Of a stretch of DNA of 64,000 nt, positions 14,917 through 30,424 are shown in pieces; within the stretch, counting starts at the first letter, position 1, and each line of letters opens with the position of its first letter. Made by a program: the position numbers and the translations under genes. Below the pieces are notes generated by a model, which had not been told where the DNA came from, ran no database searches, and saw only the letters and a list, made by a program, of their open reading frames with translations. Location of the stretch: contig OZ244048.1 in the NCBI GenBank assembly GCA_965215265.1, positions 3,264,001 through 3,328,000 on the forward strand, in the 5' to 3' direction. This DNA is from Candidatus Poribacteria bacterium. Its GTDB lineage: Bacteria > Poribacteria > WGA-4E > WGA-3G.

Positions 14917-16509
14917 TTGAAAACAAGGGTTCTCGTGCACCGAGGAATTAGTGTCTTAGCACAGCTAACGATTTTGATGTGTTTCGTTTCTTTTATTGTC
15001 ATACCTGCAACTGCCCAGGTGAGTTACCACGAACAGATTGTCCCTATTCTCAAGCGAAGCTGCCAAGGGTGCCATCACCCTGGCGATGCGAATGGCGATC
15101 TGATTGTCACAACATACGCTGAGCTCAAGCGGGGCGGAATGGCTGGCGAAGCCTTGATACCGGGAAAACCGGATGAAAGTCTAATCATCAAGCTTATTTC
15201 GGGCGATGAGCCCGCGATGCCACAGAACCAAGAACCACTGTCTACTGAAGAAGTGACTCTGTTCCGGCAGTGGATTCTGGAGGGCGCGAACGACGACACT
15301 CCCGCAGAAACTGATGCCCTGGATGAAGGGAACTATCCGGTATACACAGTGCCCCCCGTTATTTCTGCGATGGCGTATTCTCCAGATGGCAGCACGTTGG
15401 CGGTATCTGGGTTCCGCGAAGTTCTATTGTATGATACAGAAACTTTTGAAATCAGCGCACGATTGGTGGGAAAATCGCATCGTATTGAATCGCTTACCTA
15501 TACAACCGATGGAAAAATTTTAGGTGTCGCTGGCGGTTCGCCAGCACAATTCGGCGAAGTGCAATTGTGGGATACTGGAACGAATACGCTCATCAAGGCG
15601 ATGCGTTCGAGCTACGATACCATCTACGGGCTCTCTTTTTCTCCTGATGGGAGTCGAGTTGCATTCGGATGTGCAGACCAAACTGTCCGCGTTCTCTCCG
15701 TTGAAGATGAGACAGAGTTAATTAAATTTGACAATCATAGCGACTGGGTATTCGGGACTATTTTTTCTACCGATGGTTCGCATTTCGTCAGTTGTGGGCG
15801 CGATACAGCTTTAAAGTTGGTTGAAGTAGAAACCGGGTCGTTTGTGGATGATATCAATTCCAGCAATAAAGGGTATGGGGAAATTAATACGCTTGCACGG
15901 CATCCAGCCGCCGACCAGGTGCTAAGCGGAGGAGAGGATAGAATTCCGAGACTCTACAAGATTTTCCGGGAAATCCGGCGGGACGTTGGAAACACAGACT
16001 TCAATCTCATCAAAGCCTACGAAGCGCAATCCGGTTCAATTGAGGCAGTCGCATTCTCGGGAGACGGGAAAAGTTTTGCTGTTGGAAATGCGGCAGGTGA
16101 AGTGCGCGTTTATGATGTAGAAACTGGAACGCGATTATCAACTATGTCCGGGGACACCGTTGGTGTATTTGCAGTAACTTTTCATCCAGATGGTACAAAA
16201 GTCGCCGCCGGTGGTTTCGACGGGAAGATTCGTATCTTTGATGCCGCTACCGGGAAACTTGTCAAAGCCTTTATAGCCGTACCAATCGAAGCCTCAGCAA
16301 CCCAAGACATGGCTTTGACGGTAAGCGGGATGACGTGAGGGGCTTGTGTCGTTAAAGTGCAGGATGCACTCTCAAATCTCCAACACGTTATCAACGTTGA
16401 GGTTTCGCTGCCTGATAAGGCAGTGATTCAGGTTCGGAAGAACGCCATCACCGAAAATGAGCTGGCCAACGTCATTAAAGCAGCTGGGTTTAACGTGCCT
16501 AGGAAGTAG
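14917..16509 (+). CDS. signal peptide + planctomycete cytochrome c + WD40 propeller + C-terminal HMA domain with selenocysteine (UGA at 16336-16338); 530 aa with readthrough
   Basis: CQGCH and WD40 repeats. The frame continues LTVSGMT*GACVVKVQDALSNLQHVINVEVSLPDKAVIQVRKNAITENELANVIKAAGFNVPRK to TAG16509, a complete HMA fold with UGA at the first Cys of GMTCxxC. Confidence 0.88.
16336..16375 (+). promoter_or_regulatory. bacterial SECIS-like hairpin
   Basis: AGTGCA-GGA-TGCACT at 16356-16370, loop ~23 nt after the UGA; lower stem TGAGGG/CTCTCA possible. Confidence 0.7.
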
Positions 16510-25731: not shown

Positions 25732-27177
25732 ATGTTATCGTTACCTCAAATGCCTGGACGCTTGTGTGACGGGTTTTCTCGTCGTGAATTTATCCGCGTC
25801 GGCGGTGCAGCAATGCTGGGCATCAGTCTACCACAAGTTTTGGCGCTCCAAGCCGAAGCGAATACGACAGTCGATCCCGCGAAACCTCTAAACGGATGGG
25901 GAAAAGCAAATGCTGTTATTCTCCTCTTTTTGCAAGGCGGCCCGAGCCATCTGGATATCTGGGACCCGAAGCCGGAAGCGCCATCTAATATCCGGGGGGA
26001 ATTCAACCCGATTCCGACGAACGTCCCGGGGATACAGTTGTCTGAAACCATGCCCCGTTTGGCACAGCAGATGGATAAAGCGTGCCTCATCCGATCGGTA
26101 AGTTATACCCCGGCAGGTCTTTTCAACCATACGGCGGCGATGTATCAGATGGTGACGGGCGAAACGCCGGATAAGGTTGCTCCATCTGGGCAGCTTGACC
26201 CGCCGTCCCCTGCAGATCATCCCAACGCCGCGGCACACATCGCAAACTTCCGTCCGCCCGATGAACCGATGCTGGCGGCTGTCCAACTCCCACGCCCGAT
26301 GCAGGAAAGTAACATCATCGGTAAGGGCGGGAATGCTGGCTTCCTCGGTAGGGCCTATGATCCGTATTTCCTATTCCAGGATCCAAATCAAGAGATTAAT
26401 CTTGACGATTTGACGTTGAGGCCGGAAGTGCCGCCTGTGCGTCTGAAACGACGGAAAAACCTACTAGAAACGATTAACGCCGGTATGCCGGAAATTGATA
26501 AGGTTGCTGACTCTTACGCGCTCAATGAATATTATGAGAAGGCGTATAACCTCATCTTGTCCCAACGTGCGCGTAATGCATTTGATTTGTCTCAAGAATC
26601 CGATGAAATGCGTGACCGTTACGGCCGGCATACCTTCGGGCAAAGTGCGCTGCTTGCACGCCGTCTAGTTGAAGCTGGTACGCGTTTTGTGCAGGTGAAC
26701 TGGCCCTCTGTTGCTAACGGTGATCCGAACACGACAGCCTGGGATACGCACGCCACCAATTTCGGACCGCTCAAAAACTTGCACTGTCCGAAATTAGATA
26801 GTGCGGTTTCTTCACTCTTGGAAGACTTGGATGGGCGTGGCATGTTAGATGATACCCTGGTGTTGGCTATCGGTGAATTTGGCCGTTCTCCACGGATGGG
26901 CATTAGTACCTCCGGAAATAGCAATGCCCCCGATGGGCGTGATCACTGGCCGTATTGCTATACTGGCTTAATTGCGGGTGCCGGTGTACAGGGTGGGCAG
27001 GTTTACGGCAAGTCGGATGCCACTGGCTCAACACCACTTGAGAACCCGGTGCATCCACGCGATATTCTTGCGACAGTCTACCATACGCTCGGAATCGATC
27101 CGCATACTATCGTGTTAAATCACTTAGAACAACCTCGCGAATTGGTGAAAGGCGAACCGATTGCTGGGATTTTCTAA
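25732..27177 (+). CDS. DUF1501 domain protein (Tat signal)
   Basis: SRREFIRVG, GGPSHLDIWDPKP, ARRLVEAG, WDTH, GEFGRSP, GRDHWP. Confidence 0.93.
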   Translation: MLSLPQMPGRLCDGFSRREFIRVGGAAMLGISLPQVLALQAEANTTVDPAKPLNGWGKANAVILLFLQGGPSHLDIWDPKPEAPSNIRGEFNPIPTNVPGIQLSETMPRLAQQMDKACLIRSVSYTPAGLFNHTAAMYQMVTGETPDKVAPSGQLDPPSPADHPNAAAHIANFRPPDEPMLAAVQLPRPMQESNIIGKGGNAGFLGRAYDPYFLFQDPNQEINLDDLTLRPEVPPVRLKRRKNLLETINAGMPEIDKVADSYALNEYYEKAYNLILSQRARNAFDLSQESDEMRDRYGRHTFGQSALLARRLVEAGTRFVQVNWPSVANGDPNTTAWDTHATNFGPLKNLHCPKLDSAVSSLLEDLDGRGMLDDTLVLAIGEFGRSPRMGISTSGNSNAPDGRDHWPYCYTGLIAGAGVQGGQVYGKSDATGSTPLENPVHPRDILATVYHTLGIDPHTIVLNHLEQPRELVKGEPIAGIF

Positions 27178-27261
27178 CCCGAATCACTTCCTCTATAGGG
27201 GCGGATTCGCATATCCGTCCCTATCCAATCTTCGCCAGGATAAACAGAAATTAAAGTAGAT

Positions 27262-27802
27262 ATGGACATCTCCTTTAATAGCCAATTTAGGCTAAAAAGC
27301 AATGCCAAAAGCGATGCAGAACTCTCCGTAAAAGGTTTCATTACCCCAATTGAATACATGAAACCTAACTTTCACGTGGAATGGGGTGCATTGGCGAATT
27401 TGCGTGTTGCTGAGCCTGAAAAAAATATCCTGCATCAATTTTCTGAGATTTTCTCCCGCCTAAGGCCGTTCTCGTTGGTGAATGCTGGCCGATTCAAAAA
27501 CACGGCGTGCTTGCATTGTTATACTCCGTTTCTACAAATCCCAACAAATTCATTGGATACCGTTTGAAGAATCTTTGGAAATAGTGCCTGCACAATAGAA
27601 GTTTGATGTACTTCTGACTGATGAATCGTGCTGAGGAAGTGGCAAAAACTTGAGGGCAGTTGTCCTCTCTGATAGACAGAATATTGAATTTTTGAATGAC
27701 AATTTCATCGACGGATGGGTGCGTAATACTGCACTAAGGCGACAGCGTGATACCAAAGGACTTGACCGAATGCGAGTCTTGGCAAGTATAGTCATTAATT
27801 AA
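27262..27802 (+). pseudogene. fragmented selenoprotein N (SELENON)-like gene with SCUG motif (UGA at 27632-27634)
   Basis: Three frames give ..WGALANLR.. / YPASIF*DFLPPKAVLVGECW.. / RFYKSQQIHWIPFEESLEIVPAQ*KFDVLLTDESC*GSGKNLRAVVLSDRQNIEFLNDNFIDGW. The last resembles SELENON [27 protein letters not shown] (recalled). Confidence 0.75.
27632..27667 (+). promoter_or_regulatory. SECIS-like hairpin of the SelN-like remnant
   Basis: GAGGGC-AGTT-GTCCTC at 27652-27667, loop ~23-24 nt after the UGA. Confidence 0.55.
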
Positions 27803-27826
27803 TCTCAAAACATGAGGTAATCAGAA

Positions 27827-30424
27827 ATGCATGACAGGTTATTTCATAGGAAAAAGCGTGACAATTTTTTATATAGTGTTCAAACAGAGGTATCTCAGTG
27901 CGAAAAAAGGATTATCAAGTTCGTGAGAGATAGTGCGGCATGCTTGCTACAATACTTCTACTTCTTAGCAACGCGGTTATCTATCGTCTTTTTCATCTTT
28001 TTCATGGATATCGGGATGGTGCAAGCACAACGGCCGCCTGAACTGACTGACATTTTTCCACAAGGTGGACAGCAAGGGAACGTTGTTGAAGTGGCACTAA
28101 GCGGTAAAAATTTTGGAGCGGGCGCAACGTTATGGTTCAGTGGGGATGGCATTGCTGGCGAAATCAAAGAAAAAATGGGCGAAGCTGCGGTGCTGTTTAA
28201 CGGTGCAGGCATCTCAGGGCATATCCCAAAAGATGAAAGTTTGGTTGCATCTTTGACAATCGCGCCCACCACACCCTTAGGTATACAGCAGATACGTATT
28301 GTTACCCCACACGGTGTCTCTAATGCACGAAGTTTTGTGGTTGGGGCTCTTCCAGAAATAATAGAGGATGACACGGCTGCTACGCGCGATTCAGATAACT
28401 GGCTGGAGTTACCTGTCACGGTAAACGGCAGCATCGCTTCAATTGATGATGTGGATGCCTACAACTTTAGCCTAAAAAAAGACGCGAGACTGATCTGTGA
28501 TGTGACGGCACAGCGCATAGGTTCTTTACTCGATTCTTACCTTGTATTGCGAAATGCTGATGGCACTGAAGTTGCAACCAGCGGACTCGGAAATGGGTTT
28601 GATTCATTATTGGATTACACCGCAACCGTCGCTGGAAAATATACACTTCAGATTCGAGATATCCGATATAAAGGGGGCGGAGGTTACGGCTATCGGTTAA
28701 GCGTTGGAGAATTGCCCTATCTTGAAACTATATTCCCGCTTGGTGGACAGCGCGGTTCAGAAAACACAATTGCCCTCAGTGGTGCCAACCTTGGAACGTT
28801 TGAGTCTATAGAGATATCGATCGGAGGAAAAACGGAGGTAGGCAACCAGTCGTTGAGAGTAAAAACCTCGTCTGGATTAGTTACGAATCCACACGCTTTT
28901 GCCATAGGACACTTAGCGGAAATGACCGAGGCTGAGCCCAACAACATTTTCGAAAAAGCAACTCCTATCACGCTACCTCTAACCGTCAACGGGAAAATTG
29001 ATAAACCGGGGGATGTTGACCAGTTCTCATTTGAGATAAAAACGGCGCAACGTCTCGTATTTGTCGTGAATGCGCTTTCCTTGGGTTCACAACTGGATGC
29101 ACTGCTCACGCTTTACGATGCAGAGAATACGGCTGCAGAGTCCGACGAAGGTATGGACGGCGAGAATCTGAAAAAGACTAATGTTTTGATGTTCAATGAC
29201 GATGCAAGCGGTGCGGATGCCCGCATTGAATGGATGTTTGAAAAGGCTGGGAAGTATTCGATCTCTGTCCGAGATTTGAATAACCATGGTGGCACGGATT
29301 ATCCGTACCGGCTTAGCATCCGGCCGTTACAACCAGATTGTGAACTCGCGGTAGTTGCGCTTGATAACCGTAACCGCCCTATAACCTTGGATACGCCTCG
29401 TGTTTATCGTGGGGGTAGTGTCGCAATGGAGGTTGACGTAACACGACTTGATAGTTTTGATGGCCCAATTCACTTAACTTGTCCGGCGTTGCCAAAAACG
29501 TTTGAGGTGAGCCACACCGTTGTTGAAGCAGGACAAAATCGGGCGCTTCTGACGGTAACTGCGCCGTCGGATGCGCCGCTTGGGCTAATACCGGTTTCTG
29601 TCGTCGGCGTTTATGCTGTTGGCAATAAACAGATGGAACGTGCTGCTACGCCGAATCCTATTCTACTCACCGTAATGGACAAACCGCAATTTTCGCTAAC
29701 ACTTGCTGAAATTAGTTTAAGCATTGTTCACAACAAGACTGCTAATCTTCACGTAACTGCAGAGCGAAGCGACGGTTTTGTCGGCCCGATTGTCTTGTCA
29801 GTCTTAGGACTTCCCAATCGTGTTTCCGCCATACCTATTACGATAACTGAAGGGAAAACCGAATCAACACTTTCGATTAAAGCCGGAAGTTTTGAGCGAA
29901 GGGAGCAATTCTCTGTTGTACCACCACCCGGCACAAATTATATTTCGGTCATCGGGAGCGCGACTATCAATGGCGACACCGTCAAACAGAGCACGCCTGC
30001 CATCCCATTGACAATTGTCGAGGCACCTTTCATTGTAACCGTGGAACCGTTACGCTTTAGTATGGTCTTCCCTGCAACTGCGGCACCGGAAGCGGAAACC
30101 GTACCAATTGCCGGTACAACCCAAGCCGAGGGCGGAACGGGGGAGCAAAGTGCTACCACAAAGGAGGCGATATTAACGTTGAGTGTGGTACGGCAAGGCG
30201 GCTTCACAGATGAAGTAACGCTTACACCGTTAGGTTTGCCCAAAGGCATCACGACTTCTAAAGCGACAATTCCTGCTAACGAAACCGAGGTTAAGATTCC
30301 GCTACACGCAGTTAGTTCCTTAACGCCGGATACATACCAGTTTAAGTTCCATGGCTCGGCGATGATTAACGGGACGCTTTTTGAACAAGAGAGTCCGGTT
30401 ATCAGTGTTAAGATTATTCACTAA
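27827..30424 (+). CDS. planctomycete-type pre-peptidase C-terminal (PPC) repeat protein; start uncertain
   Basis: IFPQGGQQG/IFPLGGQRG, EAEPNN, LPxTVNGxI..DVDxF, DARIEW, YRLSI. Confidence 0.85.
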   Translation: MHDRLFHRKKRDNFLYSVQTEVSQCEKRIIKFVRDSAACLLQYFYFLATRLSIVFFIFFMDIGMVQAQRPPELTDIFPQGGQQGNVVEVALSGKNFGAGATLWFSGDGIAGEIKEKMGEAAVLFNGAGISGHIPKDESLVASLTIAPTTPLGIQQIRIVTPHGVSNARSFVVGALPEIIEDDTAATRDSDNWLELPVTVNGSIASIDDVDAYNFSLKKDARLICDVTAQRIGSLLDSYLVLRNADGTEVATSGLGNGFDSLLDYTATVAGKYTLQIRDIRYKGGGGYGYRLSVGELPYLETIFPLGGQRGSENTIALSGANLGTFESIEISIGGKTEVGNQSLRVKTSSGLVTNPHAFAIGHLAEMTEAEPNNIFEKATPITLPLTVNGKIDKPGDVDQFSFEIKTAQRLVFVVNALSLGSQLDALLTLYDAENTAAESDEGMDGENLKKTNVLMFNDDASGADARIEWMFEKAGKYSISVRDLNNHGGTDYPYRLSIRPLQPDCELAVVALDNRNRPITLDTPRVYRGGSVAMEVDVTRLDSFDGPIHLTCPALPKTFEVSHTVVEAGQNRALLTVTAPSDAPLGLIPVSVVGVYAVGNKQMERAATPNPILLTVMDKPQFSLTLAEISLSIVHNKTANLHVTAERSDGFVGPIVLSVLGLPNRVSAIPITITEGKTESTLSIKAGSFERREQFSVVPPPGTNYISVIGSATINGDTVKQSTPAIPLTIVEAPFIVTVEPLRFSMVFPATAAPEAETVPIAGTTQAEGGTGEQSATTKEAILTLSVVRQGGFTDEVTLTPLGLPKGITTSKATIPANETEVKIPLHAVSSLTPDTYQFKFHGSAMINGTLFEQESPVISVKIIH

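Follow-up and report, generated by a model that had tools for sequence, protein, structure and literature searches.

Mutations in SELENON, the human gene for selenoprotein N (SelN), cause congenital myopathies. Reviews state that the protein has no solved structure and describe its direct substrates and its catalytic cycle as still unclear. SelN is reported from the sponge Amphimedon and most other sampled animals (PMC3473315) and from a few algae (PMC7539508). No description of bacterial homologues was found in the parts of the literature that were available, including two reviews of prokaryotic selenoproteomes (PMC9312934, 2022; PMC13188914, 2026), the BSepDB paper (PMC13326102, in which the matches to 'selenoprotein n' are merely the words 'selenoprotein name'), a review of SelN (PMC12839072) and a paper on the evolution of endoplasmic reticulum (ER) calcium; supplements, the BSepDB database itself and the deep-Sep lists lay outside this search and may hold the family under another name. 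Here we describe positions 27262-27802 of a 64,000-nucleotide stretch of a Candidatus Poribacteria genome (contig OZ244048.1, positions 3,264,001 to 3,328,000 of the forward strand; the whole stretch is called the window), which a first-pass annotation, made from the sequence alone, had read as a decayed bacterial homologue of SelN. We hold with high confidence that it is a pseudogene, the non-functional remains of a gene for a bacterial selenoprotein whose protein family also includes animal SELENON. The interesting part is the family thereby revealed, not the pseudogene, which is ordinary in itself and matters as a pointer to this family and as an example of turnover in a selenoprotein family that expands and contracts.

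Intact relatives and homology to selenoprotein N

The last piece of the window copy, translated with its TGA read through (67 residues, P0001), matches three other places in its own 4.83-Mb genome at levels far from chance (E 3.9e-20, 3.8e-12 and 5.1e-6). All three are long frames interrupted by one codon only, a TGA in frame at the column of the TGA of P0001. With TGA read as selenocysteine (Sec, U), these paralogues encode proteins of 410 (P0002, G000:C1 ~1,018,280-1,019,510, DESCUGSGKTLRAVVLS), 542 (P0003, DESCUGSGKNLRAGVLS) and 841 residues (P0004, DESCUGTGKSLRAGPLS); intact paralogues with the TGA at the same motif had been foreseen in the first-pass annotation. The motif DES/AC-TGA-GS/TG is common to the window copy and all three, and it is very probably these three that carry the family's function in the genome, the window copy doing nothing now. 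Among 31 genomes, comprising that of the window (G000) and 30 relatives of the same order, 24 matched P0001 at altogether 111 places, 109 of which have one in-frame TGA at the motif and two have none; a full-length query over the relatives gave the same picture. Up to 14 family places occur per genome, often in tandem arrays, and intact members measure 400-840 residues; none of the four genomes of family f4 matched P0001.

Several members carry additional parts or altered active sites. P0004 (L004, G000:C1:1710396-1713527, minus strand 7-2529) joins its SelN-like module to a TPR region and to an AhpC/TSA-, ResA/TlpA-like thioredoxin domain with WSSFC, possibly a built-in redox partner. Many Poribacteria members (P0003, residues ~400-542; P0005, P0112 and others) end in one or two copies of a module of ~130 residues (QDYTVV.ID.TAFENGGTL.I.I.VG...NAF.A.ISV), for which Pfam gives no match and which neither SELENON nor P0002 contains. 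The 541-residue database protein P0118 starts past the UGA of one member and runs through its C-terminal domain into the N-terminal half of the next member, up to the UGA of the latter; it apparently shows tandem copies without a stop codon between them, or else a two-module protein. Within one orthologous group (75-86% identity to P0007), the genome G016 (L026) keeps the TGA, and G018 and G012 (L024/L025) have Gly (GGC), evidently a recent loss of Sec without replacement by Cys.

Searching 1.84 billion representative proteins with P0002 (phmmer) gave 367 matches, the best 150 of which were inspected. Within these 150, 98 representatives stop precisely at the Cys that precedes the UGA and 17 have their first residue shortly behind it, so that the split annotation at the UGA, which had been predicted from the window alone, is the common state of the database records. 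Gene callers split the family at this codon, and the selenoproteomes of these symbionts are therefore undercounted. The closest named matches are hypothetical proteins of 'Candidatus Poribacteria bacterium' beginning just past the UGA (one is misnamed BrnA antitoxin), in agreement with the earlier guess of a sponge symbiont. Cys-Cys stands at the Cys-Sec position in five of the 150 (P0126, P0127, P0130, P0138, P0148), and forms with Gly, Trp, Thr or Ala instead of Sec exist, those with Gly, Trp or Thr as full-length proteins in Poribacteria. A search of GTDB genomes for Cys-forms with P0148 alone gave no match; with the alignment A3, 12 loci were obtained, 11 titled Poribacteria and one 'uncultured bacterium', and all ten that were inspected have TGA, not Cys-Cys. 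A metagenome scan added one Sec form and one Cys form. In the metagenome representatives P0127 and P0205 the SelN-like module is preceded by ECF sigma-70 regions 2 and 4, in a third, P0210, by leucine-rich repeats (LRRs); these arrangements are either real fusions or merged gene calls. Scans of Pfam and NCBIfam (June 2026) with the fragment and the three paralogues revealed no family for the SelN-like part, the PDB sequence search gave no match for the SelN-like family or for SELENON, and the ESM Atlas, queried with P0007, returned a single, uninformative Poribacteria cluster (score 0.78).

In the same phmmer search, P0002 retrieved a wombat protein (E 8.1e-19), a Nematostella protein (E 1.8e-20, query residues 110-371) and P0245, an EF-hand-bearing fragment that is animal or animal-like (E 1.6e-16). 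The wombat protein itself shares 64-68% identity with UniRef/NCBI entries that bear the name Selenoprotein N. By BLASTP, P0002 matched a Rhinopithecus protein named Selenoprotein N (P0276) with 2e-29 (residues 64-398 against 151-545) and P0004 matched Nematostella with 2e-31; the window fragment alone reached 8e-7 against a protein named Selenoprotein N in a pairwise comparison. The bacterial-animal alignment extends over ~340 residues at 26-33% identity, and sequence is kept on both sides of the UGA in the relatives as well as in the database representatives. The homology to SelN, which the first-pass annotation had suggested, is thus solid at the sequence level, spanning both domains and reaching well past the motif.

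It could be argued that the likeness merely reflects a shared thioredoxin fold together with a convergent C-U-G motif, with no homology at the family level. The low identity is compatible with this, no Pfam or NCBIfam model links the bacterial proteins and SelN, and EF-hands are absent from the bacterial proteins: Pfam finds none in P0002, P0003 and P0004 at E<=1, these proteins beginning directly with the beta domain. It should also be noted that an architecture without EF-hand and apparently without type II anchor is unlike that of SELENON and in so far speaks against placing both in one family. The alignment, however, takes in the non-thioredoxin beta domain (blocks FRIHAEF, P.QF.G and LP....G..W), the E-values of 1e-16 to 1e-20 were obtained against 1.84 billion proteins and those of 2e-29 to 2e-31 pairwise, the animal sequences fall within the same tree as the bacterial ones, and in JGI/IMG one metagenome fragment truncated at the UGA (P0142) already bears the label 'selenoprotein N'. 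We consider convergence very improbable and treat the bacterial proteins as members of the SelN family.

A quick maximum-likelihood tree, unrooted and with no outgroup, was built from 101 rows. Its input consisted of the 97 representatives among the 150 that measure 255 residues or more, and of nine added rows (the three paralogues of the window's genome, the G012 protein, P0007, P0043 and three named SelN); five rows with too few columns dropped out. All animal sequences group in a single clade (seven rows, SH-aLRT 100), which lies in a 'DDQSC' half of the tree with two fragment clades carrying bacterial lipoprotein-type N-termini; the Poribacteria proteins fall in the other, 'DDESC', half, and the base of the unrooted tree is not settled. 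The idea that the locus bears on gene exchange between animals and bacteria is thereby only weakly borne out: with an identity of 26-33% the relationship is an old one, Poribacteria are not nearest to the animal clade, and nothing in the sequences points to a recent transfer between sponge and symbiont. A bacterial origin of SelN seems plausible because of the depth of the bacterial diversity. As a tentative and rather doubtful extension, SelN might at its root be a widespread and deeply diversified bacterial redox module (beta domain plus C-U thioredoxin fold), which animals and a few algae acquired once, adding EF-hand and membrane anchor afterwards, and which sponge symbionts of the Poribacteria type expanded to a dozen or more Sec genes per genome in tandem arrays. 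If true, these symbionts would be among the most selenoprotein-rich bacteria, and the family would be a workable model in which to study how human SELENON acts on its substrates.

The remnant and its lesions

Translated in three frames, the stretch 27178-27830 contains four pieces of the former gene, all on the forward strand, and tblastn of the intact proteins on the window aligns residues 7-51 in frame 1, 51-92 in frame 3 and then ~223-333 in frame 2, in this order. The first fragment (27262-27423, frame 1) corresponds to approximately residues 7-51 of the 542-residue P0003; it reads MDISF...ELSVKGFITPIEYMKPNFHVEWGALANLRVAEPEK from the ATG at 27262 up to a run of seven A (A7) and matches P0003, P0002 and the G012 protein with 43-53% identity (E 1e-14 to 6e-17). 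At the A7 run (27419-27425) the reading shifts from frame 1 to frame 3, the tblastn alignments overlapping here in two frames. The second fragment (27420-27545, frame 3, residues ~51-92) reads KKYPASIF-TGA(27444-27446)-DFLPPKAVLVGECWPIQKHGVLALL and is interrupted by this nonsense TGA. The frame 3 alignment stops at ~27545-27578 and the frame 2 alignment begins at 27518-27527, so the change of frame, which had been placed near 27521, is real; it is, however, the junction (27518-27545) of an internal deletion that removed ~125-130 codons (residues ~93-222 of P0003). The third fragment (27518-27598, frame 2, FYKSQQIHW...VPAQ) ends in a nonsense TAG at 27596-27598, which replaces a Gln, and the fourth (27599-27802, frame 2) bears the DESC-TGA-GSGK motif and ends at TAA 27800-27802. 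Taken together, frame 2 reads ...FYKSQQIHWIPFEESLEIVPAQ-TAG(27596-27598)-KFDVLLTDESC-TGA(27632-27634)-GSGKNLRAVVLSDRQNIEFLNDNFIDGWVRN...VIN-TAA(27800-27802), with the motif DESC-TGA-GSGKNLRAVVLS and the longer stretch GSGKNLRAVVLSDRQNIEFLNDNFIDGW after TGA27632. The TGA at 27632-27634 is the former selenocysteine codon, standing at the same column as the in-frame TGA of the 109 places counted above.

Fragments, A7 run, stop codons and hairpin all lie at the positions given in the first-pass annotation, to which we add two lesions: six codons (PIHxxS) are missing just upstream of the DESC-TGA motif, after TAG27596, and the 3' part is lost beyond residue ~320-341 of the intact proteins, the missing codons amounting to ~70 (compared to P0002) up to 220 (compared to the G012 gene). 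Measured against the paralogues and the G012 gene, the copy thus has one frameshift and two nonsense codons, lacks two internal segments and is truncated at its 3' end, which agrees with the internally deleted pseudogene that had been proposed. Programmed frameshifting at the A7 run was considered as well and is ruled out by the nonsense codons and large deletions downstream. TGA27444 was also examined as a second Sec codon, given that P0003 has Cys at this column; P0002 has Gln there, the frameshift lies upstream and no hairpin follows, which rules it out.

One of the lesions sits in a homopolymer and a genome in a single 4.83-Mb contig suggests long reads, so that the gene could in principle be intact in the organism and its lesions be assembly or sequencing errors, such as homopolymer miscalls. 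We compared the locus with Logan contigs of the runs X5, X6 and X8, which belong to three further studies, none of them the likely source. The X5 contigs cover the whole stretch with no differences, the X6 contig spans all 801 bases with 8 substitutions and no gaps, and the X8 contigs cover 27255-27441 and 27448-27900 with 6 substitutions and no gaps, including the A7 run; at the A7 run, TGA27444, TAG27596 and TGA27632 no difference occurs in any of these contigs. Moreover, a homopolymer error cannot yield two nonsense codons, deletions of ~125 and 6 codons and a missing 3' half, and the intergenic space measures 650 nucleotides (nt) compared with 1629 nt for the G012 gene. Because contigs of three other studies share the lesions without gaps, we regard the pseudogene as real and an artefact as exceedingly improbable.

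As the first-pass annotation had stated, the remnant lies between genes for a DUF1501 protein (25732-27177, forward strand; PF07394, E 2.2e-102) and an 865-residue PPC-domain protein (27827-30424, forward strand; PF04151, E 9.6e-10). In G012, which belongs to another genus of the same family, an intact 542-aa gene with one TGA (ADETCUGSGKSLRAG) occupies the place between the DUF1501 and PPC orthologues. The flanking genes of G016 and G004 are ~400 and ~260 nt apart with nothing between them, and G001 (same genus) has at this site a 266-aa open reading frame (ORF) of the RRXRR family (PF14239, E 3e-27; L074 3212-4012, minus strand), likely a mobile element, with ~50 nt of the start of the remnant still recognisable. 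Against a simple descent from a common gene at this site it must be said that the last fragment is 45.6% identical to the G012 gene, compared with 51.5% to P0002 and 49.6% to P0003; since this similarity is no higher than to the paralogues, orthology with the G012 gene is positional only.

A further question is whether the remnant is still in use, be it through a short product (the 101-aa ORF 27262-27567 or the 50-aa ORF 27650-27802) or through a regulatory role of its transcript or hairpin as RNA, such as the titration of SelB. This otherwise badly damaged copy has kept UGA and hairpin perfectly, and strains from four studies differ by only ~1% over the stretch. Such preservation is, however, to be expected on the short time scale which a strain divergence of 1% implies; the pieces lack most of both domains, G016 and G004 have nothing at this site, and in G001 the RRXRR element has overwritten it. 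Continued use seems to us quite unlikely, and we keep to the interpretation as a non-functional remnant.

The candidate SECIS hairpin and the selenocysteine machinery

Starting 17 nt past the TGA, the window copy has a hairpin of GAGGGC (27652-27657), AGTT and GTCCTC (27662-27667), which we read as the relic of a candidate bacterial selenocysteine insertion sequence (SECIS). The consensus fold of the first-sampled UGA contexts shows this hairpin in 20 of 20 cases, with a 6-bp stem at columns 21-36 after the U of the UGA. In 47 distinct copies of the main subfamily, 98.6% of the 282 pair cells are paired (47-77% in controls with slid partners), two-sided changes from G-C to A-U occur in five cells at two of the six pairs, and the covariation score was reached by none of 500 shuffles. 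The codons of the hairpin are constrained too: of the six codons in hairpin and loop, five have an entropy of 0-0.42 bits at the third position, compared to 0.8-2.0 bits in most codons elsewhere, the low exceptions outside the hairpin being the Cys before the TGA (0.15 bits) and a Lys (0.34 bits). Leu is TTG or CTG in 46 of 47 copies, the next Leu CTC in likewise 46, and Arg as AGG/AGA, Ala/Thr ending in A and Val/Gly ending in T are found in all 47. AGG itself encodes the Arg in 43 of the 47 copies, and it makes up only 8% of the Arg codons in the long ORFs of the window. The same hairpin, longer by one pair and with a GGUC loop, is present in a second subfamily (WGPLDDESCUANGK) and in a GC-rich metagenome contig.

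Some observations weigh against a role in decoding. The Gly-form L018 and the Cys-form L088, the latter being the only Cys-form for which DNA was obtained, can form a similar hairpin, and two of the 47 copies (L030:4044, L041) break two pairs. The hairpin of the non-Sec forms could be a fossil, or the structure could partly be a by-product of the R-A-G/V-x-L peptide; because L018 and L088 can form one like it, the hairpin alone is no proof of a SECIS. An E-value search of 27200-27850 against Rfam gave no match to a SECIS model and two chance-level matches only. Considering conservation, covariation and the presence of the Sec machinery, the hairpin is probably a bacterial SECIS; from the earlier proposal of a bacterial-type SECIS the conserved, covarying structure stands, and its role is qualified by the similar hairpins of the two non-Sec relatives.

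The genome is equipped for Sec insertion, with a tRNA-Sec (80 bits against a cut-off of 47 bits; anticodon tca according to ARAGORN) directly after selB, and with selB (336.5 bits), selA (588.6 bits) and selD (359.6 bits), all above their curated cut-offs. We infer that Sec is inserted in the intact family members. The selD gene (L064, G000:C1:4044300-4045226) has an in-frame TGA, and SelD is probably itself a selenoprotein in this genome. Elsewhere in the window, 14917-16509 (forward strand) holds a 530-aa frame that is open only if TGA 16336 is read, with a cytochrome-c-like N-terminus (CQGCHH), a WD40-like middle and a C-terminal HMA-like GMT-U-GAC; the hairpin GTGCA-GGA-TGCAC follows 18 nt past this TGA. 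The window probably contains here another selenoprotein gene, corresponding to the HMA-type gene of the first-pass annotation, in which a hairpin had been noted at nearly the same distance from the UGA (18 nt compared to 17 nt in the remnant).

Fold, proposed function and comparison with known systems

The AF2 model of P0002, computed from an alignment of 123 rows (pLDDT 92, pTM 0.88), consists of a beta-rich domain (residues ~30-220) followed by a thioredoxin fold (~235-390), in which C285-U286 immediately precede a helix at 287-296. For the thioredoxin fold, the best PDB matches in Foldseek are DsbH-type thioredoxin domains, AGR2/AGR3 and ERp19 (E 1.4e-4 to 1.4e-2, probability 1.00); the N-terminal beta domain of ~200 residues has no convincing PDB match. 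The Cys-Sec pair (D-E-S/A-C-U-G-S/T-G-K) would accordingly be placed at the start of the first helix, where thioredoxins have CxxC. Its UGA would be read as selenocysteine by SelB and tRNA-Sec, presumably directed by the coding-sequence hairpin 17 nt downstream. Because of the fold of the model and the established behaviour of vicinal Cys-Sec centres, the intact proteins may be thiol/selenol oxidoreductases cycling through a Cys-Sec selenenylsulfide. Many members are possibly exported: P0002, P0007, P0160, P0193 and P0226 have hydrophobic or lipobox N-termini as judged by eye. This cannot be general, since P0003 and the G012 protein show no obvious signal peptide, a point against such a location for the whole family; where it applies, export would parallel the ER lumen location of SELENON. 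The fusions to a TlpA/ResA-like domain (P0004), ECF sigma regions (P0127, P0205) and LRRs (P0210) would fit a redox or sensing role in the envelope, for which they are only hints. The window copy has lost its function through the A7 frameshift, the two nonsense codons and the disappearance of the greater part of the beta domain and of the thioredoxin domain's C-terminal half; UGA and hairpin persist in it as relics.

The bacterial branch offers soluble, EF-hand-free proteins for structural work and enzymology, and it includes naturally occurring Sec, Cys and dead (Gly/Trp) variants that can be compared with one another. Hints of function come from its fusion partners, namely a TlpA/ResA-like thioredoxin, ECF sigma factors and LRRs. 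The family thus gives simple access, through bacteria, to a human muscle-disease protein that is still poorly understood.

Compared with known systems, the family shares with DsbH/Thioredoxin_7-type proteins the redox residues at the start of helix 1, but has a vicinal C-U pair in place of CxxC/CxxS, and the sequence profiles do not match. In its stem-loop within the coding sequence shortly past the UGA it resembles bacterial SECIS elements such as that of E. coli fdhF, whose loop we take to be GGUC; the loops of this family are AGKU or GGUC with invariant G and U, whereas the candidate stem is short (6-9 bp) and no Rfam model fits. Mammalian thioredoxin reductase, with which a SelN review draws a parallel for SelN (PMC12839072), likewise has adjacent Cys and Sec (C-terminal G-C-U-G) able to form a selenenylsulfide; the pair of the present family lies inside a thioredoxin fold, not in the flexible C-terminal tail of a flavoenzyme, and the two are not homologous. 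From SELENON the bacterial proteins differ in a UGA with a coding-region hairpin as the presumed decoder instead of a SECIS in the 3' untranslated region, in many paralogues per genome instead of one, in extra C-terminal modules (the beta-sandwich repeat of P0003, the TPR and TlpA/ResA-like domain of P0004) and, for the window copy itself, in being dead. Both sides have homologous beta-rich and thioredoxin-like domains over ~340 residues, occur mostly as Sec forms and have in common the motif S-C-U-G-S-G-(K/R)-x-L-R with Sec in the same column, the basic residue four past Sec being K in the bacterial family and Arg466 in human SELENON, for which a change to Gln is reported as pathogenic in the same review (PMC12839072).

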